From assembly GCA_027923505.1 (NCBI GenBank), contig BROI01000020.1:1-64000 (forward strand): DNA of 64,000 nucleotides. The letters are read 5' to 3'. Below the pieces are notes generated by a model. It was not told where the DNA came from and made no database searches. It saw only the letters and a program-made list of their open reading frames with translations. Below are positions 39,001 through 52,600 of this stretch, piece by piece. A program made the position numbers and the translations under genes. Position 1 is the first letter of the stretch. Each line of letters opens with the position of its first letter. This DNA is from Mayamaea pseudoterrestris (taxonomy: Eukaryota).

Positions 39001-39392
39001 GACTCTGCACCTGTCAATGGCATACCCTGGACATGTTTGGCCTGACTCATTGGGTATTTGGGTGGCCAGGGCATGGGGCGTTTGACAGGTCAGAATCGAC
39101 AACTTGTGGTGTTGGCCATACCCACCGTGGAGGCCGTACCCATGGTGTCAGCCTCCAGGCAGTCCTTTTTGCACCATTTGAGACTATGCACCTGTCAATG
39201 GCATACCCTGGACATGTTTGGCCTGACTCATTGGGTATTTGGGTGGCCAGGGCATGGGGCGTTTGACAGGTCAGAATCGACAACTTGTGGTGTTGGCCAT
39301 ACCCACCGTGGAGGCCGTACCCCATGGTGTCAGCCTCCAGGCAGTCCTTTTTGCACCATTTGAGACTCTGCACCTGTCAATGGCATACCCTG
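1..39392. repeat. 181-bp tandem satellite array, about 220 head-to-tail copies, continuing past the left window edge
   Basis: The monomer CTGGACATGTTTGGCCTGACTCATTGGG...CACCTGTCAATGGCATACC recurs with a 181-bp period, and identical ORFs recur every 181 bp. Hand count gives 100/181 G+C. The last satellite bases are ...GGCATACCCTG at 39392. Confidence 0.99.
247..10220. repeat. 4987-bp tandem duplication inside the satellite (copies 247-5233 and 5234-10220)
   Basis: Eight variant monomers recur at an offset of exactly 4987 (ORF pairs 575/5562, 1299/6286, 2023/7010, 3290/8277, 3651/8638, 3832/8819, 4555/9542, 4736/9723). The out-of-register junction CACCTG|AGAATCG is at 5233/5234. Confidence 0.9.
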
Positions 39393-39698
39393 AGTCGAAG
39401 TTGAAGGTGTATCCTACCTTCCTACCGAGGTGCAAGCACCTCTCTTACTATATGTGTAAGTTGACGCCCCAACGGCATCGTGGACGAGCAATCGTGATGC
39501 CCACGATGGGCGAGCGAGGTAAATCAATAGCAGTTAATTAAATCCTCTCAGTTAATCACCAACGCCTTCGTTGTTGTAGCAGTTGCAATTACTCGAGTCC
39601 TTTGCTCTTGTTGTTGCTCTTAATAACAGTCTCCATTCAACCTATTGAGTGAGAAGCATTTGCTAGTGCAGCCATTGCTGTCGCTGGAAATCTTCACT
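39393..39698 (+). repeat. 5' LTR (306 bp), AGTCGAAG...CTTCACT
   Basis: By eye it is identical to 47381-47687 except one indel (CATTCAACCTA vs CATTCAATCCTA). The PBS follows immediately. Confidence 0.95.
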
Positions 39699-39710
39699 GG
39701 TTACGAGCCC
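39699..39710 (+). promoter_or_regulatory. Primer-binding site GGTTACGAGCCC, half-tRNA-iMet type
   Basis: It abuts the 5' LTR. It matches the complement of an initiator tRNA-Met anticodon arm (GGTTATG[A/G]GCCC, as in Drosophila copia) with one mismatch, rather than a tRNA 3' CCA end. Confidence 0.75.
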
Positions 39711-39805
39711 CACGGTTCTTCTGCAGTCGTCGTCTTGCCAAGGGAGTGCACGCCCAAGCAAGCAACTAAGACAGAAGCCAAAGCTTTAATCACACTCGAG
39801 TTACC

Positions 39806-42800
39806 ATGGCGCCAGGAACGCCAACACCACCACGGCCTCCAGTCCAAATGACGGAGGACCAGCGCATGCTCCTACAAGCTGCCGAGTTCCAGCGATCCGA
39901 AATGATCAATCGGGTGGAACGTGAACGACGCGCCAAGCTCACCCAAGCTGAGCGAGACGCCGAGGATGAAATTCGCCAGCTGTATAACGAACAACAGCAG
40001 CGGATGAAGATTGCTGCTCAGCTCAAAGCCAAGCAAGAGCAGCAGGCTGCCATCGATGACGCCGTTCGTCAGGCGATGGAAGAAGCCGCGCGTGACCGAC
40101 AGCGTGCCGTCGACGAAGCCATCGCCAAACACATGGATTCCGAAATCGCCAAAGAGATGCTACGTCAGCATCGCGCACCTGTCCAAGTGTACACGCCAAA
40201 CAAACCCATCATGGGCACTGTCGTCCAAATCTCCACCAAGGAGCGAGCGGCATGCATGGGCGGCGGTCCACCAAATGTGGATTGGTCGGGATTGGAAAAG
40301 CCAGTCGCCGACGGAGCCAAGCCAAGCAACTCGTTGATGCTTCGTCCCTTGAACGATTCAAAGCAACAAGAGCGGCAGAAAGGACTTCCAATGAAGTTTA
40401 CGTTGACGTGCAATTTGCAGCATCAACAAATGCTCTTTAAGGAACAGGCGGAGCTCTGTGGCAACGACACATATTGTTACGTCATCGACCCGCGCGATCC
40501 AACCAAGACCAAGTTGGTTAATTTCCTTCAATATTATTCGCTGTTCGAGAGCATTGAGTCGGTCAAGGAAGCCATTGCTCCTTTCGTCGCCAGCTACGAC
40601 GAATATGATCGCGGCAACGACAAGGATCTCATTAGATTCTTCAAGAATTCGTGCAACGAGGAGCTTCGCACGCGCCTGGATCATTATACCAGCGCTAGCG
40701 CCCAGGATAGCTTCTGTGTCGTCTATTTCCAAGTAATGGAGATGATTCTTCACCAATCCCGCGACTGGTACTTGAAAGTGGAACAAGAAGTCGCCGCCTA
40801 CAAGCCGCAAGCGGAGCCAGGCCAAAACATTACCACCTACATGGATGCGCTTATTATCAAAGCAAAGCCATTGATTAATGCGGGTCAGTATCCGCATTCC
40901 CTGACCACCAAAGTGTTGAAAAACCTTCTCCAAGCAGGAGGCGAGCGCTGCCTTGAAAACACTGGCGGCGAGGAGTTCATTGACGAAATGAAAGCTTGGA
41001 AAGCTAAGCATGTCATTGGCTTGAAAGCTTGCTCGAATATGACTCCAACGGATCAGGATGCTTACATGACGCGTGAGCATCTAACATTAAAGGATTTGGC
41101 GCAGGTAGCTAATACTGCTTACCGCCAGATTCATGCGGCCAATGACTGGGTTCCCGCCAAGAATCCGCGCGACAAGACTGCCATTCCGCCCACCTTTGGA
41201 GGCGTTGTTCAACTTGACAAAGCCAAGGCAAACGGAAGGGGAGCAAAGGAGGAAAAGACTTGTCACATTTGCCATAAGCCCGGCCATTTTCAGCGCGATT
41301 GCCCACAGGCAACGACTGTGAAAACTAGCAACAAGCGCGGCGCTCCCAAAGGAAATGGAAAAGGGAAGCCCAAGACTGCTCCAAAGAGTGGAAAGGGTGC
41401 TTCGTCAAAGGCCATTGACGATGTCCATCACTACCATGCGCCATGGCGGCGAATTGCTCCTTCAGCGTCGCAGCCATCTACCATTGAAAAGGGAGGAAAG
41501 ACCTACCATTGGTGCGCGCATTGCAACAAGTGGCAACTTAACCATGGCACTGACGAGCATACTGGAAGTAAATCTGCTCCGGCCGCTGCTCCCAATGGTG
41601 GTCATCTTGCTTGGTTTGATACGCCAGCTGCCTATCTAGCTATCGAGGATCCATCAGCTTGCGCCCAAGCCGCCGCTGACGCCAAAGCCCTTGCTTTAGC
41701 CAATGACGATTGTTCTCTTGAAGAAGGTGAAGAAGCTGTCATTGACGCGATTGCATCTGCCATGGTGGACGGCGAGGATGCCATTGCTTCCATTGTTGCC
41801 GATGATCCAATGATCATTGATGAGCATACGCCAGCGGCCATCGTCGCCAAGCTCTGCAATATTGAGCGCTCTCCTAGTGATGATCGCTATGAGTCTGATG
41901 TGCAGTTTGCTCGGAATGCAGCTATTCAAGCGAGGGAGCTTGCAAGTGGTGTTAACGCTCCCCCTGCAAAGATTGCTAAGTTGAATCCTGCTGCTCCAGC
42001 CTGGACGCCTCCTTTGAGCCCCAGCTCCGAGCCATCTGCCAAGCGCCCTACCAAGCCAAACAAGGTGCTTTACCGTCGCTCTCGCAGTCTCTCTCCAAGT
42101 GCACTTTCATTTGTGCTTATGATTGGATTGATTTGCTTGGTGAATTCGTGCTCAGCAGCTCGATTGGTTAAGCGCCCAGCTTCGGCCCTGCCTGTGAGCC
42201 ATTCGACTTTAAGTGAGGCATTCTTCACTGTGACTCGAACTGTTTCATCTCTTGTTCGTTCAAATAACGCAACTGAGACTCAGGCTTTGCATACTGCTGT
42301 GGCCCAGCAGTTTGCCCATACAACAGCCGCCCTTGGCGAGAGTCTCCATTTGGCTGATCAACTTGGCCATTCCATCATGACAGTTGGTTGCGAGAGCCTT
42401 TCTCTTGTCCATGTCATTGGCCGTTTGATTTACCATCATTGGCGTTTGATGGTGCCAGGGATTCTTTGGTTGACGCTCACTAGTGTCGCCATTGCCTTGA
42501 TATTTTGGAAGCCACCTGCAAAGCCTCCTCGGCATTCGGATCGACGCCATCGTCGCTTCTATCTCCATCAAGATCGCCGCAATCGTCACTCTGTTTCAAG
42601 GTTCCAACGGTTCCGTTTCTTATTCCATCGGTTTCACCGTCTCCGTCGGTTTCGGAAGCGGGTAATCCCCTGGTTTTTGCATCTCCAAGCCAAGTTCCTT
42701 GCCTTCTTGCGCGCCATTCTATGCAGGTTGCCTTCCAACGAGGGAAAACCATGGCATTTGCATGCTCGAAGACGAGGCCCAGCTCGAGTCCAACCAAGAA

Positions 42801-43066
42801 ACCGTGCTCAGCAGCATCATCGCAATGGTCGAAACCATGGACAGCACTCACGCCCAAGTCCAAACCAAGCGCAGCGCCATCGCCAGCGTCCTCGCCAAGG
42901 CCCAGACCAAAGCCAAGTGCCGCGCCGTCGCCCAGCTCGCGACCAACCATGGCGCCCTCGGACTGCCCACGCAGTTGCCGTTGCTCCGCCCTTGGTAATT
43001 AATGCTCGCGCTGAGGCTCTCCGTTCAACTTTTCGACAAGCTCAAGCTGCCCAATCAAGTGAATGA
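39806..43066 (+). CDS. gag: Gag-like ORF1 (1086 aa) with a long C-terminal membrane-type extension
   Basis: Coiled-coil-like N-terminus, CX2CX4HX4C knuckle CHICHKPGHFQRDC (41261-41302) and a second Cys/His motif WCAHCNKWQLNHGTDEH. These are followed by an acidic region, two hydrophobic segments and an Arg-rich tail. Confidence 0.88.
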   Translation: MAPGTPTPPRPPVQMTEDQRMLLQAAEFQRSEMINRVERERRAKLTQAERDAEDEIRQLYNEQQQRMKIAAQLKAKQEQQAAIDDAVRQAMEEAARDRQRAVDEAIAKHMDSEIAKEMLRQHRAPVQVYTPNKPIMGTVVQISTKERAACMGGGPPNVDWSGLEKPVADGAKPSNSLMLRPLNDSKQQERQKGLPMKFTLTCNLQHQQMLFKEQAELCGNDTYCYVIDPRDPTKTKLVNFLQYYSLFESIESVKEAIAPFVASYDEYDRGNDKDLIRFFKNSCNEELRTRLDHYTSASAQDSFCVVYFQVMEMILHQSRDWYLKVEQEVAAYKPQAEPGQNITTYMDALIIKAKPLINAGQYPHSLTTKVLKNLLQAGGERCLENTGGEEFIDEMKAWKAKHVIGLKACSNMTPTDQDAYMTREHLTLKDLAQVANTAYRQIHAANDWVPAKNPRDKTAIPPTFGGVVQLDKAKANGRGAKEEKTCHICHKPGHFQRDCPQATTVKTSNKRGAPKGNGKGKPKTAPKSGKGASSKAIDDVHHYHAPWRRIAPSASQPSTIEKGGKTYHWCAHCNKWQLNHGTDEHTGSKSAPAAAPNGGHLAWFDTPAAYLAIEDPSACAQAAADAKALALANDDCSLEEGEEAVIDAIASAMVDGEDAIASIVADDPMIIDEHTPAAIVAKLCNIERSPSDDRYESDVQFARNAAIQARELASGVNAPPAKIAKLNPAAPAWTPPLSPSSEPSAKRPTKPNKVLYRRSRSLSPSALSFVLMIGLICLVNSCSAARLVKRPASALPVSHSTLSEAFFTVTRTVSSLVRSNNATETQALHTAVAQQFAHTTAALGESLHLADQLGHSIMTVGCESLSLVHVIGRLIYHHWRLMVPGILWLTLTSVAIALIFWKPPAKPPRHSDRRHRRFYLHQDRRNRHSVSRFQRFRFLFHRFHRLRRFRKRVIPWFLHLQAKFLAFLRAILCRLPSNEGKPWHLHARRRGPARVQPRNRAQQHHRNGRNHGQHSRPSPNQAQRHRQRPRQGPDQSQVPRRRPARDQPWRPRTAHAVAVAPPLVINARAEALRSTFRQAQAAQSSE

Positions 43067-46000
43067 GGCTTACGAGAATATGATCAGTGACCGCCTTCGC
43101 GCCCAAGAGGAAGATTGGAACGCATGGCTAAATGATACGCTTCTTTATCAATATGAAGAGCGCCATCGGATTCGCAATCGAGATTGGCGTAATGATCCAT
43201 TGATTACAACGCCTGATGGAGTCACCTACTTCAGTATAGCTCATGCAGATCGGGAGCGGCAAGCCAGTCGGCGTCAACCATTCCGCTTTAAAACTGACAA
43301 GGCGCCAACGCCTTTGCCTCCACCAGTGCCGCAAGCTTCAATTCAATCAATTGATCCAATGCCACAAGAGGTGTTTGCGTCTGTTGTGTTTGGGGATTTT
43401 TCAGATTTCGACGATTTTGGAGAAGCCTACCAAGCGTCCCACTTGGAATCTGCCCAGCCGAATATACCAACATTGAGCCAATCTCTCTTTAACAATAAAT
43501 ATCGCAAGTCCCCGCCAGCACCACCGTGCAAGGAGAAGGACAAGATGCTGCCAGTAATCTGGGATTCAGGAGCAAGCATCTCCATTTCGCCAAGCCGTGA
43601 CGACTTTGTTGGCCCCATTCAGCCAGCGCCAAGTGTTCGTTTGAATGGTCTCTTCAAAGATGGTCGAGTTAAAGGCAAAGGGTTTGTCGCCTGGAGCTTT
43701 CTTGACAATGGAGGCATGCTTCGCACAGTAAAGGTTCCAGCATACTGGATTCCTGAGGCCAAAGTGCATCTTTTGAGTATGCCAGGATTGCTGCAACAGT
43801 ATCCAAATGAAGTTATATATGCCGATCGCCGAGCTATCTACTTGAGCGGTTCTGTGGAGCGAGTCCACAAGGATGGCTCTATAACGAATGATGGTGTTGA
43901 GGCTCCAATTGATCCTCTTACCAACTTGCCGACTGCTATCGCATACGATCTCAGTGGCATGCCAAGTTCTTACAATGCTGGCGAGGCGCCTTTGCCTCCG
44001 CCTGGTCCTGGTCCTGGTCCAGCACCTGCTCAGCAGCCGCCGCGCGGTCCACCGCCAGCTGATGGTCCTCCAAGTGATGGAGGAGCAAGTGCGCCCACAA
44101 GACGCCCTCGCCGTGAGCCAAGACCACCGCCAAGCCAAAGCTCCACCGTCGCCAGCTCGAATACCAACTTGTCTGAGGCTGAAAAGGAATTGCTCCGTTG
44201 GCATTTCCGTCTTGGCCATTTGAACTTTAAAACCATTCAGTTTCTAATGCGTGGTGGAACGCTTGCTAACTCTGAGTCGGCACGCCGTCTCCATAGAGCT
44301 TGCGCAACTTTGCAGCCATGTCCCAAGTGCACTGCCTGCATGTACGCCAAGCAGCGAGTGCGTTCCTCTCCTGGTCAAACAACCAAAGTTGTTAAAGACC
44401 GAGTTGATGCTTTGCGCCGAGACAATCTTCTCCCAGGCCAGCGCATCTCCGTTGATCACTTTGTTTGCTCAACAAAAGGACGCCTTTTCTCCTCGCGTGG
44501 CAAGACAAAGGAAACTGCCATGAACACAGGCGGTTGTGTGTTTGTTGATCATGCATCCGGCTACGTTCATCTTGAGCTGCAACAGCATTTAAATACGGAT
44601 GATACATTAAGATCTAAAGAAGCTTTCGAGTTGTTCTGCCGTGATGTTGGAGTCATTCCCCTCGAGTATCTCTCCGACAATGGTGGTGCCTTTACGTCAC
44701 AAGGCTTCTCCAAGCATCTTACAACTTTCCATCAAGTCAGTGCGCTTGCTGGAGTCGGCGCTCACCATCATAATGGGATTGCCGAGCGTTGCATACAGAC
44801 CATTATGTCTATTTCGCGTGCCATGTTGATGCATGCTAAGATCCATTGGCCCGATGTCGCTGATGTTTCACTTTGGCCCATGGTCACCAAGCATGCCGTG
44901 TATCTTTGGAACAAGGTCCCTAATCTACAGAGCGGCCTTTCTCCCCAAGATATCTTTACTCGCACTCGATGGCCCCATTCCAAGTTCCATGACTTGCACG
45001 TTTGGGGGTCTCCAGTGTATGTTCTTGATAAAACGATATCGGACGGCCACAAGTTGCCCCGCTGGCAGCCGCGGTCCCATTGCTGCATCTTTGTTGGAAT
45101 GAGTGAAGCCCACGCGAGCTCCGTTCCTTTGGTTTTAAATCCGCACTCGGGCGCCATTACGCCGCAGTTTCACGTCGTCTTTGATGATTGGTTTGCCACT
45201 GTGGCTGTAACTGAGTCGCAAATGCCGGATTTTGCATCCACAGAGTGGTATAATCTCTTTGGAAACACGTCTCTTCAATATATCCCATTGGATGATGAAG
45301 ATGAAGCCATAGCTTCTGCTGAATTCGAGGCTGAGCCTGCCGTCTCCACTCGAGCGGATGCTGTTCGTGATGCTTTTGAGCGCCATGCTCCTCCTCGAGA
45401 TTTGCAAGTCCCTCCTCCTGCTGAGTTGCCAGCGCCGCCTTCGTCGGCACCAAGCCAAGAGCCCGCCCAAGCGAGGGAGCCCGAGTCTCCGAGGGAGCTT
45501 CCAATTGAAGTGCAAGATGAATCTTCGCCTCCGAGGGAGCTGCCGGCTGATCCATCGCCATCTTCGGTCTCCAACAATGAGTCTCCGAGGGAGAATCCTA
45601 CAGCTCCAACAGCTACGCCAAGTACTCGCCGTTCCAGTCGCGCCACTAAGAAGCCATCCCGCCTCTCTTACGACGCCTCCGGAGCCCAAATCGAGTCAGT
45701 TTGTGACGCCAGTTTCGTCTCCTACTTTGCTGCTTTTAATATTGCTGCTCCAGCCCTCTACAAGGCTGCCGCATCGGATCCAGATACTTTAACTTGGGAT
45801 CAAGCCATGGCTGATCATGCTCATGTAAAGCATTGGCAAGCTGCCGCCGAGAAGGAGATTCAATCGTTGGAGTCCAAAGGAACATGGACTGAAGTCCCCA
45901 AATCGGAAGCCAAGACCAAAATTCTTCCGGGTACTTGGGTCTTTCGCCGTAAGCGCTCCCCAGATGGGACGTTTAAGAAATACAAAGCTCGCTATTGCGT

Positions 46001-47357
46001 TCGAGGTGATCTGCAAGAAGGCGACTTTGAAACGTACGCACCAGTTGTGGCATGGTCGACCATCCGATTGATGTTGATTCTAGCCCTTAACCTTAACTGG
46101 TATGCCTGCTCCACGGATTTTGCCAGTGCATTTGTCCAAGCCGAGCTCCATGACCCAGTGTGGATCCATCTCCCTCGAGGTTTTCACACAAGTAAAGGCC
46201 CCGGCATGTGTTTGCGCCTCCTAAAGAGTCTTTACGGATTGACTGTAGCCCCTCGGCTATGGTTTGAGCATTTGAAGGCAGCCCTCATCAAGCTCGGTCT
46301 GAAACAAAGCTACTTTGATCCTTGTTTGTTCTATGGAAAGAACTTGGTGATGTGTTGCTTCGTGGACGACTCCATCTTTGTCGCTAAGACATGCAAGCTT
46401 GTCGATGCCTTCATTGAAAAGCTTCGCGCTCTCGGTTTTGAGCTTACCAAGGAAGACACCCTATGTGAATACCTTGGAATCAAAATGGAGCGCGACGACA
46501 AGGCAGGTACCATTACCTTGACCCAGCCAGGTTTAATTGACAAGATTGTTGCTTCTGCCAATATGACGCATTGCAATCCAACTTTGACACCAACAAGTCT
46601 CTTGGCTCTCGGCTCGGATCCCCATGGTCCCGGCATGAAGGAAACTTGGGGCTACTCGTCCATTGTTGGAATGCTTCTTTACTTGTCAATCAATACTCGA
46701 CCCGACATCGCATACGCTGTCAGTCAAGCTGCCCGGTTCAATGCTGCTCCAAAGCAGTCTCATGCCGCTGCAGTTAAAATGATTGTGCGCTACCTCAAAG
46801 GCACGCGCAATCATGGTACAGTTATCAAGCCAACGGGAACTCTCGCCTTAGATCTCTACGTTGATGCTGATTTTGCCGGTCTCCATCGACGGGAACCAGA
46901 TGAATTGCCAGTCTCAGTTCGATCCCGCACTGGGTACATCATCTTGCTGTCTGGTTGTCCGTTAGTGTGGAAATCCCAGTTGCAGACGGAGATTTCGCTC
47001 TCGACCCTTGAAGCCGAGTACAGCGCTCTCTCCTTTGCCCTCAAGACTTTGCTTCCTTTAAAGCGAATTCTATCCGAGGTGATTGCCGTTCTAGATGTGC
47101 CATCTCCTCTCAAGACTTCCATCAAGGCTCGCGTCTTTGAAGACAATCAAGGCGCCTACTATTTAGCCATCAACCACAAGTTGACAAACCGCACTAAGTA
47201 CTTTCTGGTCAAGTTCCATTGGTTCTGGAGCCATTACAAGCGCGGTGAATTTGAAGTCCTTAAGGTCGACACGACCAACCAGTTAGCAGACTATCTGACA
47301 AAGGGCCTCCCACGTGATTCCTTCATCAAGAATCGCTTAGCTGTCCAGCGCAATTAA
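43002..47357 (+). CDS. pol: Pol polyprotein: aspartic protease, integrase, reverse transcriptase, RNase H
   Basis: Protease IWDSGAS (D at 43563). Integrase HHCC region WHFRLGH...CTAC and core RISVDH...SDNG...NGIAER. RT KARYCVRG...KSLYGL...FVDD (46359-46370). RNase H DADFAG...EAEY...EDNQ...LADYLTK. The frame is uninterrupted. The true start is uncertain (frameshift versus the AUG at 43002). Confidence 0.97.
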   Translation: MLALRLSVQLFDKLKLPNQVNEAYENMISDRLRAQEEDWNAWLNDTLLYQYEERHRIRNRDWRNDPLITTPDGVTYFSIAHADRERQASRRQPFRFKTDKAPTPLPPPVPQASIQSIDPMPQEVFASVVFGDFSDFDDFGEAYQASHLESAQPNIPTLSQSLFNNKYRKSPPAPPCKEKDKMLPVIWDSGASISISPSRDDFVGPIQPAPSVRLNGLFKDGRVKGKGFVAWSFLDNGGMLRTVKVPAYWIPEAKVHLLSMPGLLQQYPNEVIYADRRAIYLSGSVERVHKDGSITNDGVEAPIDPLTNLPTAIAYDLSGMPSSYNAGEAPLPPPGPGPGPAPAQQPPRGPPPADGPPSDGGASAPTRRPRREPRPPPSQSSTVASSNTNLSEAEKELLRWHFRLGHLNFKTIQFLMRGGTLANSESARRLHRACATLQPCPKCTACMYAKQRVRSSPGQTTKVVKDRVDALRRDNLLPGQRISVDHFVCSTKGRLFSSRGKTKETAMNTGGCVFVDHASGYVHLELQQHLNTDDTLRSKEAFELFCRDVGVIPLEYLSDNGGAFTSQGFSKHLTTFHQVSALAGVGAHHHNGIAERCIQTIMSISRAMLMHAKIHWPDVADVSLWPMVTKHAVYLWNKVPNLQSGLSPQDIFTRTRWPHSKFHDLHVWGSPVYVLDKTISDGHKLPRWQPRSHCCIFVGMSEAHASSVPLVLNPHSGAITPQFHVVFDDWFATVAVTESQMPDFASTEWYNLFGNTSLQYIPLDDEDEAIASAEFEAEPAVSTRADAVRDAFERHAPPRDLQVPPPAELPAPPSSAPSQEPAQAREPESPRELPIEVQDESSPPRELPADPSPSSVSNNESPRENPTAPTATPSTRRSSRATKKPSRLSYDASGAQIESVCDASFVSYFAAFNIAAPALYKAAASDPDTLTWDQAMADHAHVKHWQAAAEKEIQSLESKGTWTEVPKSEAKTKILPGTWVFRRKRSPDGTFKKYKARYCVRGDLQEGDFETYAPVVAWSTIRLMLILALNLNWYACSTDFASAFVQAELHDPVWIHLPRGFHTSKGPGMCLRLLKSLYGLTVAPRLWFEHLKAALIKLGLKQSYFDPCLFYGKNLVMCCFVDDSIFVAKTCKLVDAFIEKLRALGFELTKEDTLCEYLGIKMERDDKAGTITLTQPGLIDKIVASANMTHCNPTLTPTSLLALGSDPHGPGMKETWGYSSIVGMLLYLSINTRPDIAYAVSQAARFNAAPKQSHAAAVKMIVRYLKGTRNHGTVIKPTGTLALDLYVDADFAGLHRREPDELPVSVRSRTGYIILLSGCPLVWKSQLQTEISLSTLEAEYSALSFALKTLLPLKRILSEVIAVLDVPSPLKTSIKARVFEDNQGAYYLAINHKLTNRTKYFLVKFHWFWSHYKRGEFEVLKVDTTNQLADYLTKGLPRDSFIKNRLAVQRN

Positions 47358-47370
47358 CCCAGCACGAGAT

Positions 47371-47380
47371 AGCGAGGGAG
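47371..47380 (+). promoter_or_regulatory. Polypurine tract AGCGAGGGAG
   Basis: Purine-rich run immediately 5' of the 3' LTR, 13 bp after the pol stop. Confidence 0.85.
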
Positions 47381-47687
47381 AGTCGAAGTTGAAGGTGTAT
47401 CCTACCTTCCTACCGAGGTGCAAGCACCTCTCTTACTATATGTGTAAGTTGACGCCCCAACGGCATCGTGGACGAGCAATCGTGATGCCCACGATGGGCG
47501 AGCGAGGTAAATCAATAGCAGTTAATTAAATCCTCTCAGTTAATCACCAACGCCTTCGTTGTTGTAGCAGTTGCAATTACTCGAGTCCTTTGCTCTTGTT
47601 GTTGCTCTTAATAACAGTCTCCATTCAATCCTATTGAGTGAGAAGCATTTGCTAGTGCAGCCATTGCTGTCGCTGGAAATCTTCACT
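47381..47687 (+). repeat. 3' LTR (307 bp)
   Basis: Direct repeat of 39393-39698. Identity ends after CTTCACT. Confidence 0.95.
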
Positions 47688-49682: not shown

Positions 49683-52600
49683 ATGAGCGCTCCCGGATTA
49701 AACGGAACCAATAGCAACAACTGGGACGTGTCTCGTCTCTGGTCTCCAGCCGGAGACTTTGACATAATTGGTCTCGATCAAGTCATGGTGGCCGCCTACA
49801 GTCCGACGGACCCGCATCGCGCGTCGGCCAATAAACTGCTCATGCAGCTCCAGGAAATGCCCGAGCTCTGGACCAAGGCGGATGCCATTATTGAGCAAGC
49901 GCAGAATCCGCAGGCGCGATTCTTTGGATTGCAGGTATTGGATGATGCGATTAAAACACGCTGGAAGGTTGTGGCGCAGGATCAGCGCGATGGAATCAAG
50001 AATTATGTCGTTGGGAAAGTGATTAACATGAGCAAGGATGAAGTAGTGATGAATCAGGAACGAGTCTTTATTAGTAAATTGAATTTGACGCTGGTGGAAA
50101 TACTAAAGCAAGAGTGGCCGCACAATTGGCCGTCGTTCATCACCGATTTGGTTGGCAGCTCCAAGACGAGCGAAGTCTTGTGCGAAAACAACATGCAGAT
50201 TCTCAAGCTCCTGTCGGAGGAAGTCTTTGACTTTTCCAAGGATCAAATGGTCACGGATAAGGTCAAGCGCATGAAGGAGAGTCTCAATGGCGAGTTTGCG
50301 CAGATTTATCAGCTGTGCGAGTTTGTTTTACTGAACTCGCAACGACCATCCTTGCTGCGGGTCACGCTGCAGACGCTGCAGCGGTTTCTTACGTGGATTC
50401 CGCTTGGATTTATCTTTCAAACCAATTTGATTGATGTTCTTGTCAACAAGTTTTTTAGTACACCATTGTTTCGCAACGAGGCGCTCGATTGCTTGGCGGA
50501 AATTGGAAGCTTGAAGGACCTTGATCCACAGTATGATCATTTGTTTCGACAGTTGCTGCAAGGTTTTCTCGTGCAGCTTGGCGCTATCATTACGCCGGAA
50601 ACAAACTTGACGCCTGCGTATGAGAATGGATCAGAAACGGACCGACTCTTTATCCAAAAGCTTGCCCTGTTTCTGTCGGGCTACTTTAAGTCGCATCTTC
50701 ACGCGCTCGAAGCGCCCGAGTCGCAGGAAGCCTTGCTCAAGGGCATGGTATACTTGGTGCGTGTGTCGGAGGTGAAGGATACTGAAATCTTTCGCATTTG
50801 CCTCGAAGCATGGCACATGCTTGCCGACGACTTGTACAAGTGGGAGCAAAGTGTTGCGCGGAGCAGCTTGGGCAGCGGTTTGAACCTTGGCACGCCAGGT
50901 ATGAATGGAGCGGGACAGGCGTCGCGCAAGTTTCTTTATGCTAATGTTTTGACTGGCGTGCGGCATGTCATGATTGCCAACATGGCCAAGCCGGAGGAGG
51001 TTTTGATTGTCGAGGACGAGAATGGAGATATTGTCCGAGAAACGACCAAGGATACTGACGTTATTGCGCAATACAAGACGATGCGAGAAGCTTTGGTTCA
51101 TTTGACGCACTTGAACTATGAAGACACGGAGACGATCATGTTGGCCAAGCTGGCGGAGCAAGTAGACGGATCGGCTTGGAGCTGGAACAATTTAAACACG
51201 CTTTGTTGGGCGATCGGAAGCATTTCTGGCGCCATGACTGAAGACGAAGAGAAGCGATTTTTGGTGACTGTCATTAAAGACTTGCTGGGATTATGCGAGC
51301 AAAAGCGAGGAAAGGACAACAAGGCTGTCGTTGCATCGAATATCATGTACGTTGTGGGGCAGTACCCTCGGTTCTTGAAGGCACACTGGAAGTTTCTCAA
51401 GACAGTCGTCAATAAATTGTTTGAATTTATGCATGAGGTGCATCCTGGTGTGCAAGACATGGCTTGTGACACATTTTTGAAGATTGCTGGCAAGTGTAAA
51501 CGCAAATTTGTGACGGTGCAGTCGGACGAATCAGTGCCGTTTGTCTGCGAGCTTGTCGACTCCTTGCCAAGCATCATTAGCGACCTGGAACCGCATCAAG
51601 TGCAAGCGTTTTATGAAGCAGTGGCAACGATGCTGAGCGAGAATCCAGAGACCGTCCCGATTGATCGACCAGCCATTCTGTTGAAGCTGATGGAGCTTCC
51701 CAATCGAACCTGGCGAACGATAATGGAGCAGGCTGCGACGAATGTCGAAACGCTTATTGCACCGGCGACGATTAAAGAAATTATAAAGATCCTCAAGACA
51801 AACAACAAGGTCTGTGGAGCAGTTGGGTCACTGTATACGCATCAGTTGCAAGTCTTCTTCCTCGACATGCTGAATGTTTACAAGGTTTATTCAGAGCGAA
51901 TTTCTTTGGCGATTCAACAACAAGGTCCTCATGCGACTCAGTTGAGTCTCATCAAGAACCTCCGTAGTGCAAAGAAGGAAGTTTTGCGATTGCTGAGCGT
52001 ATTTATCGCGAAGAGCGGACCACCAGAAGCTGATCCTCGGGCTGTGGCAATGGGATTTATTCCGCCAATTTTGGACCCAATTCTTGGTGACTACAAGCGT
52101 AACATTGCGGGTGCACGAGATCCTGAAGTACTGAAGCTAATGGGGACAGTTGTCGAGAAGTTACAAAATTACGTGGCTGAAGACGTTCCTAGAATCATGG
52201 AAGCTGTGTTCGAAGTCACTCTGGAGATGATTACGAAGAATTTTGAAGATTTTCCGGAGCATCGCTTACAGTTCTTTTGGTTTCTGAAGATGATTAATCA
52301 CCACTGCTTTGGTGCGCTTTTCAAAATCCCACCCGAGCACCAGAAACTCGTCGTACAGTCGGTTGCTTGGGCGATGAAGCACACGGAACGCAATATTTCT
52401 GATACGGTACGTTGTTCAGTTTGTCATCATTTGCGTTCTGCCAATTTTCTCATCTCTTACACATCTTTGCTTTGTAGGGACTTGAGATCCTACATGAACT
52501 ATTGATCAACGTCTCTCAGACACCAGGTGTCGCTCAGGCATTTTATCAGCAATACCTCTTGTCCCTTATTCAAGATGTGTTCGCCGTGATGACCGATCGG

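Follow-up and report, generated by a model that had tools for sequence, protein, structure and literature searches.

The element described here is a long terminal repeat (LTR) retrotransposon of 8.3 kb from the diatom Mayamaea pseudoterrestris, situated within positions 1 to 64,000 of contig BROI01000020.1 (assembly GCA_027923505.1); this stretch of 64,000 nucleotides, read on the forward strand, was analysed as a whole and is referred to below as the window. Our analysis revealed that this Ty1/copia element encodes, in the middle of a single Gag-Pol polyprotein and between the nucleocapsid and the protease, a conserved module made up of two strongly hydrophobic segments (H1 and H2) separated by a loop and followed by a basic tail, and we regard the reality of this conserved coding module as practically certain. 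Its hydrophobicity and charge pattern suggest that the module is probably truly inserted in a membrane. As for its function, the explanation that we hold to be the best overall, and favour modestly, is that it acts as an endomembrane tether of the polyprotein; that tethering during assembly is the main role of the module appears to us, on such features, about evenly balanced. The polyprotein would then probably be tied to an internal membrane, a tie that is undescribed for this class of elements.

In the window the coding part of the element is split into two open reading frames (ORFs), ORF2 lying in the +1 frame relative to ORF1 and overlapping it by 68 nt (42999-43066). This split is peculiar to the window copy or to its assembly. 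When Logan contigs of four runs (X1, X2, X4, X6) were aligned onto 41400-43400, those of all four had one base fewer at 43050, CC instead of CCC; as a consequence, the reading frame of ORF1 passes without interruption into that of ORF2, and in the common form of the element Gag, the module and Pol make up one polyprotein, about 2516 aa long by arithmetic from the coordinates. Record 8 of X2 (6013 nt) covers 41400-43400 with the gap at 43050 alone and 18 substitutions, none of which creates a stop. The extra C of the window may have arisen by mutation in this copy, or it may be a homopolymer error; as stated in a part of its description (PMC9724779), the published M. pseudoterrestris assembly was made from Nanopore reads and later polished. 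In the main copies of X1 and X6, position 43184, in the region of Pol ahead of the protease, is followed by a 15-nt insertion that keeps the frame and is missing from the window copy, and, among the indels listed, all but this insertion and the base at 43050 belong to a second, more diverged family. The region, which a sequence-only reading of the window had taken for an extension of the Gag ORF, is instead the middle of a single polyprotein, as shown by the base at 43050 in the four runs and by the relatives P0010 and P0013.

The same reading was right in regarding the region between the nucleocapsid and the protease as coding: codon usage, the single frame and the relatives agree that the module is coding and in one frame with Gag and Pol. 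A log-odds score of codon usage, with Gag (39806-41599) and Pol (43560-47354) as the training set, ranked the ORF1 frame first in all 150-nt bins between those at 41606 and 42206 inclusive. In the bin at 42356 the ORF1 frame scored 13.3 versus 14.3 for a reverse frame, and in the bins from 42506 to 42956 no frame was prominent, all six being open across 42666-42998. The tail was also compared, in each of its three frames, with the tails of relatives, against 300 composition-preserving shuffles. The ORF1 frame gave z values of 2.7, 2.4 and 2.0 with P0003, P0012 and P0013 (matched by 5/300, 6/300 and 9/300 shuffles, respectively) and of 1.0, not above the shuffles, with P0005, and the other two frames stayed at z ≤ 1.4 throughout. 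A programmed +1 frameshift was rejected, since none of the four runs has a contig with the additional C at 43050. The frame-0 ORF at 42666-42998, which has an RNY-like pattern with many third-position Cs, ends with TAA (42996-42998) just before ORF2 and was no more similar to the tails than shuffles were (z ≤ 1.4), and the minus-strand ORFs 42260-42595 and 42480-42998 are read as a mirror of RNY periodicity, the relatives giving them no support. As to the nearest gene model, P0001 (NCBI, 780 aa), it coincides with ORF1 to aa 753 and then departs into another frame, ending before H1, so that the module was missed in annotation; the joint of its 23-nt GT..AG splice at 42065-42087 was found in no contig of the four runs, and this splice is probably a gene-model artefact.

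Beyond its zinc motifs ORF1 goes on for 475 aa, and the parts that had been picked out there beforehand, namely the acidic stretch, the linker, the two hydrophobic segments, the loop with its NAT sequon and the basic tail, are all found where they had been placed (Table 1). As judged by the Kyte-Doolittle (KD) mean over 19-aa windows, H1 and H2 are the only parts of ORF1 with KD ≥ 1.6; ORF2 has one weaker window, of 1.67, within the reverse transcriptase (RT), which leaves H1 and H2 as the most hydrophobic parts of the polyprotein. Two non-overlapping windows with KD ≥ 2.0 arose in 5/5000 shuffles of the 475-aa extension and in 2/2000 shuffles of the whole ORF1. A simple additive insertion sum, calculated with Hessa-scale values, amounted to about +0.8 kcal/mol for H1 and -0.2 kcal/mol for H2, that is, from borderline to favourable.

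Signal peptides generally follow the -3/-1 small-residue rule at their ends. By inspection, H1 consists of a basic n-region (RRSRS), a 13-aa hydrophobic core (LSFVLMIGLICLV) and a small-residue c-region (NSCSAA), which is consistent with the signal-peptide-like character ascribed to it before, and the 15 residues preceding it have a net charge of +7. H2 is continued by WKPPAKPPRHSDRRHRR, with Trp and then Lys/Arg at the segment end (WKPP); with its approximately 20 apolar residues and the positive flank after them, it has the composition expected of a stop-transfer anchor. The positive-inside rule would place Gag and Pol on the cytosolic side, and the charges around the two segments, i.e., the +7 before H1 and the basic stretch after H2, agree with the previously suggested topology of a luminal loop between cytosolic Gag and Pol. 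The tail contains 22% Arg and 8% His, with RFQRFRFLFHRFHRLRRFRKR at aa 932-952. AF2, given an alignment of five sequences, modelled the module entirely as helices, H1 (module residues 25-48) and H2 included. No Pfam family was matched by the module or by the relatives P0004 and P0010, and the ESM Atlas gave no usable match.

When ORF1 aa 559-1086 were compared exhaustively by HMMER with 1.84 billion representative proteins, 9 matches at E ≤ 0.001 were obtained. Among named proteins the closest come from M. pseudoterrestris and are annotated as hypothetical: P0001, identical over ORF1 aa 1-753, and P0002, 76% identical across part of the linker. P0003 (E 2.5e-12, 30% identity) aligns over the loop, H2 and the tail, and P0004 (E 3.4e-10) over the linker, H1, the loop and H2; the match of P0009 falls at H2, and for P0005-P0008 the second zinc motif is the part that matches best. 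P0003 belongs to one cluster with P0010, and both are uninterrupted ORFs on metagenome contigs of 1.5 and 2.3 kb. P0010 matches the ORF1 module over H1, the loop and H2 with its aa 3-173 (29% identity, E 2e-19) and the N-terminus of ORF2 together with the protease with its aa 357-450 (E 1e-17), which means that the loop, H2, the basic tail and the protease share one frame there. When a module profile (alignment A2) was used, the top matches, P0005 and P0009, were members of the profile and hence expected, and two matches came from outside it, P0012 (2.3e-8) and P0013 (1.4e-7). The latter is a 2028-aa single ORF, whose Pol is 49% identical to that of the window over 1304 aa and in which a CCHC knuckle (381), the second zinc motif (453), DPSAW (489), H1 (KD 2.3-2.5), a short loop and a weak H2 (1.45) are followed by a polybasic stretch, FHRKYPRRLR, and then DSGAS (789) and the protease-integrase-RT (PR-IN-RT) part. 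DNA of the relatives was found neither in metagenome scans nor in a viral-contig scan.

Every relative covering the region exhibits a common order: zinc knuckle, W-C-x2-C...H...H, D/N/Q-P-S/A-A-W, hydrophobic segments, basic tail. The D/N/Q-P-S/A-A-W motif is present in 6/6 relatives that cover that part (P0005-P0009, P0013), and the 60 aa past the last hydrophobic segment contain 15-20 Lys+Arg in all six sequences long enough. In the long-loop form (the window element, P0003/P0010, P0004) an acidic and Pro/basic linker stands ahead of H1, P0004 having a comparable acidic-then-Pro/basic run there, and the loop is about 85-110 aa long, with one sequon in the window, four in P0003 and two in P0004. 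H1 of the window aligns with H1 of P0004 (end ANAA) and of P0010 (end AHAS), and small -3/-1 residues are found at the end of H1 in 3/3 long-loop sequences (CSA/A, ANA/A, AHA/S). At H2, HW..LPxLLWL...FWKPP is common to P0003/P0010 and P0004, and W140, W149, A156 and P164 are invariant in A2. In the short-loop form (P0005, P0013; P0009 is less clear-cut) the linker is absent and fewer than 30 aa separate the hydrophobic segments, which lie at 494-520/541-562 in P0005 and at 502-533/552-570 in P0013. The tail motif [FLI]H[RK][RK][YHL]Px[RK]LR occurs in P0003/P0010, P0005, P0012 and P0013, and the window has FHRFHRLRRFR at the aligned place. The hydrophobic pair and the basic tail recur in distant relatives found by the HMMER and profile searches, and the observation extends to a lineage and not to the window copy alone.

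The mechanism that we favour may be pictured as follows. H1, an internal signal-like segment standing after the nucleocapsid zinc motifs, would engage the endoplasmic reticulum (ER) or another endomembrane; the short loop would be exposed on the luminal side, and H2, as a stop-transfer span, would return the chain to the cytosol, where the strongly basic tail may rest at the membrane surface ahead of the protease, integrase and RT. Such a hairpin would tether the polyprotein and the translating RNA, concentrating the components at the site of particle assembly, and Gag and Pol would be freed by the element's protease, perhaps helped by signal peptidase of the host cutting where H1 ends in small residues. 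No signal peptide or transmembrane (TM) segment is known in the Gag of yeast Ty1. Ty1 is likewise copia-type, and, according to Doh, Lutz and Curcio (2014, PMC3945221), its RNA is translated with the signal recognition particle (SRP), its Gag is translocated into the ER and its assembly site is nucleated by co-translational ER targeting. The element described here differs from Ty1 in that hydrophobic segments are built into its polyprotein between the nucleocapsid and the protease; the hairpin tether would thus do by sequence what Ty1 appears to do via SRP and the ER without an obvious signal.

Several points weigh against this mechanism. The near copies showed 98 differences, of which 40 were listed and 30 main-lineage substitutions scored (24 of them within 41400-43049). 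Within 41640-42508, 4/8 scored substitutions are synonymous in the ORF1 frame (P=0.20), and in the tail 5/13, a count that is the same in each of the three frames; with so few scored substitutions among near-identical copies, purifying selection on the module is not demonstrated. For the whole span 41400-43049, 12/24 are synonymous (P=0.03). The second family (X1 record 3, X2 record 9; protein P0002), which is roughly 88% identical and has about 1/5 of the main family's contig depth, contains between window positions 41487 and 42785 insertions of 9, 3 and 6 nt, deletions of 1, 3, 5 and 15 nt, and replaced segments, the 1-nt and 5-nt indels falling in the module region. Frameshifts in sister copies had been named by the sequence-only reading as a sign of a non-coding spacer; the second family appears decayed but does have such indels. 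The family of relatives is small, about ten sequences, mostly fragments and just three of the long-loop type. Their hydrophobic segments vary in strength and number, from one to three (three in P0007, two or three in P0009, an H2 peak of only 1.45 in P0013), so that a strict two-pass hairpin is not universal. The AF2 model is of low confidence (pLDDT 66, pTM 0.27), and Foldseek found no match to it in the PDB with E ≤ 0.001. Besides, a Gag shell with a membrane-held C-terminus is hard to close unless it is cut beforehand.

The module may alternatively be a processing or dosage device, in which host signal peptidase cuts H1 after CSA/A, so that Gag is detached from loop-H2-tail-Pol with no need for the element's protease, and faster turnover of the membrane-bound Pol product then leaves an excess of Gag. 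This would be compatible with the tether; as an explanation of the module in its own right we regard it as unlikely. The majority copies have a single ORF, so no recoding sets their Gag:Pol ratio, and the n-h-c architecture of H1, with its small-residue end in all three long-loop sequences, is that of a signal peptide. However, P0005 and P0013 show, by inspection, no obvious small -3/-1 pair after H1, and the faster turnover is purely conjectural. An analogue of such a device is the capsid-anchor cleavage in flavivirus and hepacivirus polyproteins, where an internal signal/anchor follows a basic, nucleic-acid-binding capsid part, the chain then forms a luminal segment and spans the membrane back again, and signal peptidase and the viral protease share the cuts. 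The arrangements are alike on paper, but there is no sequence or fold relation between them, and our module differs in its luminal part, which is tiny and no envelope glycoprotein, and in belonging to a reverse-transcribing element.

It is also improbable, in our opinion, that the hydrophobic helices and the basic tail never enter a membrane and form a soluble oligomerisation or RNA-binding spacer that, for example, controls dimerisation of the protease. The long helices of low confidence that AF2 gives, and nothing else, would suit such a spacer, as would the varying number of hydrophobic segments among the relatives and the richness of the tail in Arg, His and Phe, which nucleic-acid binding would predict. 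Against it, near-pure apolar segments of 19-21 residues with Trp and basic residues at the ends are what membrane spans typically look like, and soluble linkers seldom have them.

After cleavage at H1 and by the element's protease, the loop, H2 and the tail would make a small glycosylated type I membrane protein, and the module could in that case be an embedded mini-envelope or a fusogen like FAST proteins or sORF2, allowing particles to bud into a membrane compartment (ER) or to move between cells, e.g., during gamete fusion or mating. We consider this quite unlikely. A short putative ectodomain, a hydrophobic span and, directly after it, a polybasic patch and an amphipathic stretch are indeed the layout of reovirus FAST proteins and of sORF2 from Drosophila MDG1-group Ty3/gypsy elements, as given in a part of PMC11952523; sORF2 and our module both sit in LTR elements without env, and by this analogy sORF2 may be called the nearest functional counterpart in LTR elements. 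In addition, the loop has sequons, and tail aa 943-960 reach a helical hydrophobic moment of 1.68. This score is, however, unexceptional, 1.73 being reached elsewhere in ORF1, and basic residues after a TM are generic. According to the same part of PMC11952523, FAST and sORF2 are stand-alone ORFs of about 75-200 aa with a single TM and usually N-myristoylated, whereas our module, with its two hydrophobic segments, is enclosed in a polyprotein of about 2516 aa and lacks an acylation motif (ORF1 starts with MAPGT and not MGxxxS/T, and the module is internal). The polybasic patch of the single-TM N-out/C-in form is present, but this form itself could arise only if H1 is cleaved off. The resemblance to FAST proteins proposed by the sequence-only reading is thus reduced to a TM followed by basic residues, with neither a stand-alone small ORF nor an N-terminal myristoylation motif.

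The envelope-like role put forward in the same reading is also unlikely. The loop is poorly conserved both in length and in sequence, and its shrinkage from 95 aa here to <30 aa in P0005 and P0013 leaves an envelope or fusogen role without support; nothing like a receptor-binding or fusion domain was seen in it. Moreover, the hosts are walled unicells, in which membrane-to-membrane contact is rare. The Env-like ORFs of sireviruses and errantiviruses also belong to LTR retrotransposons and span membranes, but they are separate, follow pol and have large ectodomains, while our element has a loop of 95 aa or less and no ORF after pol, the gap between the Pol stop (47357) and the 3' LTR (47380) being only 22 nt. 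In a part of the ICTV profile (PMC8515867) Pseudoviridae are characterised by intracellular particles and no extracellular phase. Membrane anchoring is, on the whole, the best-supported mechanism, and a fusogen or envelope function is of low probability. Finally, that the two-ORF arrangement of the window is genuine, with Pol made by a programmed +1 frameshift in 42999-43066 or with the tail a non-coding or out-of-frame spacer, is very improbable: the +1 position of ORF2, the openness of all six frames and a slight lead of frame 0 over the ORF1 frame in one 150-nt bin (15.1 vs 11.7) would agree with it, but the missing base in the contigs of four runs, the single frames of P0010 and P0013, the stop of frame 0 and the resemblance of the relatives' tails to the ORF1 frame only do not.

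As to the element itself, its LTRs are 99.7% identical, differing by a single indel. The Pfam matches of ORF2 are gag_pre-integrs (380-451), a weak rve (508-573), SH3_retrovirus (662-729) and RVT_2 (961-1198), and the DSGAS protease motif stands at ORF2 aa 188 (nt 43563-43577). The order of protease, integrase and RVT_2-type RT in Pol, together with the LTR pair and the CCHC Gag, is that of Ty1/copia (Pseudoviridae), and the element is a young, intact-looking Ty1/copia of a diatom. It shares with CoDi-like diatom Ty1/copia elements the diatom host, short LTRs, the PR-IN-RT order and the CCHC knuckle in Gag; in most CoDi elements at most one stop or frameshift separates gag from pol, as stated by Maumus et al. 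(2009, PMC2806351), whose paper and that of Llorens et al. (2009, PMC2774666) were the first to describe diatom copia elements. The words "transmembrane" and "hydrophobic" never occur in the main text of the former, the element structures themselves being given in supplementary files. Likewise, the CoDi passages in the main text of the latter, whose element structures are also supplementary, mention no membrane segments, and neither does the main text of a 2025 preprint on diatom transposable elements. Full-text literature searches on retrotransposon and copia polyproteins with transmembrane parts retrieved no description of such a module.

If the tether is real, the entire replication machinery of some copia elements sits on a membrane, as in many RNA viruses, and the module is a sequence-encoded counterpart of the dependence on the ER and SRP that is so puzzling in yeast Ty1. 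It would also give a hint as to how single-ORF elements might part Gag from Pol or set their ratio, and would be a plausible first step towards gaining an envelope. Should the mini-envelope explanation be true after all, it would mean an independent route from retrotransposon towards virus within Pseudoviridae.

Table 1. Features of the Ty1/copia element in the window (nucleotide positions of the window; aa, residues of ORF1).
Feature	Position	Strand	Remarks
5' LTR, 307 nt	39392..39698	+	Direct repeat with 47380-47687
ORF1 of the window copy, 1086 aa	39806..43066	+	Gag, zinc motifs, linker, H1, loop, H2, basic tail
CCHC zinc knuckle, aa 486-499	41261..41302	+	C-x2-C-x4-H-x4-C; Pfam zf-CCHC 19.4 bits vs cut-off 20.8
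Second Cys/His motif W-C-x2-C-x2-W-...-H-x4-H, WCAHCNKWQLNHGTDEH, aa 569-585	41510..41560	+	
Acidic/Ala-rich stretch and Pro/basic linker, aa 612-765	41639..42100	+	Delimited by composition
DPSAC	41648..41662	+	Local form of the D/N/Q-P-S/A-A-W motif ahead of the hydrophobic region
H1, ALSFVLMIGLICLVNSCSAA, aa 766-785	42101..42160	+	Signal-peptide-like, small-residue end CSAA; KD peak 2.12
Loop, 95 aa	42161..42445	+	Single N-x-T sequon NAT (aa 821, nt 42266-42274)
H2, LMVPGILWLTLTSVAIALIFW, aa 881-901	42446..42508	+	Followed by WKPP; KD peak 2.17
Arg/His/Pro/Gln-rich tail, aa 902-1082	42509..43049	+	With FHRFHRLRRFR (42623-42655) and amphipathic FLHLQAKFLAFLRAILC
ORF2 of the window copy, 1451 aa	43002..47357	+	Pre-protease region, protease, integrase, RT, C-terminal part
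CCC run, CC in contigs of X1, X2, X4 and X6	43050..43052	+	One base missing at 43050, full depth, 4/4 runs
3' LTR	47380..47687	+	Purine-rich tract GAGATAGCGAGGGAG upstream

The C-terminal part of Gag bears a signature of its own, the second Cys/His motif followed by D/N/Q-P-S/A-A-W (41510-41662 in the window), which no Pfam family covers and which could be a zinc-binding or a protease-cleavage signature. The Cys/His motif, present also in P0005, P0006, P0007, P0008, P0009 and P0013, takes the form W-C-x2-C-x2..6-W-x3-H-x4-H among the relatives and is located about 70 aa after the CCHC knuckle. In ORF2, a Pro/Gly-rich low-complexity insert (PLPPPGPGPGPAPAQQPPRGPPPADGPP...) lies between the protease and the zinc region of the integrase, at about 43960-44130 (ORF2 aa ~320-375); when aligned, P0013 has a gap there, i.e., lacks the insert.

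Further copies of the element were not found within the 64-kb window, and no target-site duplication was seen at its ends (...ACCCT on the left, TAGAG... on the right). A candidate primer-binding site, (T)GGTTACGAGCCCCACGG, is situated at 39699-39716, directly after the 5' LTR. The left flank, window 1-39392, is occupied by a 181-bp satellite array of about 217 units, which stops exactly at the start of the 5' LTR and whose many 124-aa ORFs are repeat artefacts. The right flank is non-satellite sequence, and a 940-aa ORF (49683-52505) located some 2 kb past the element has the appearance of a host gene.

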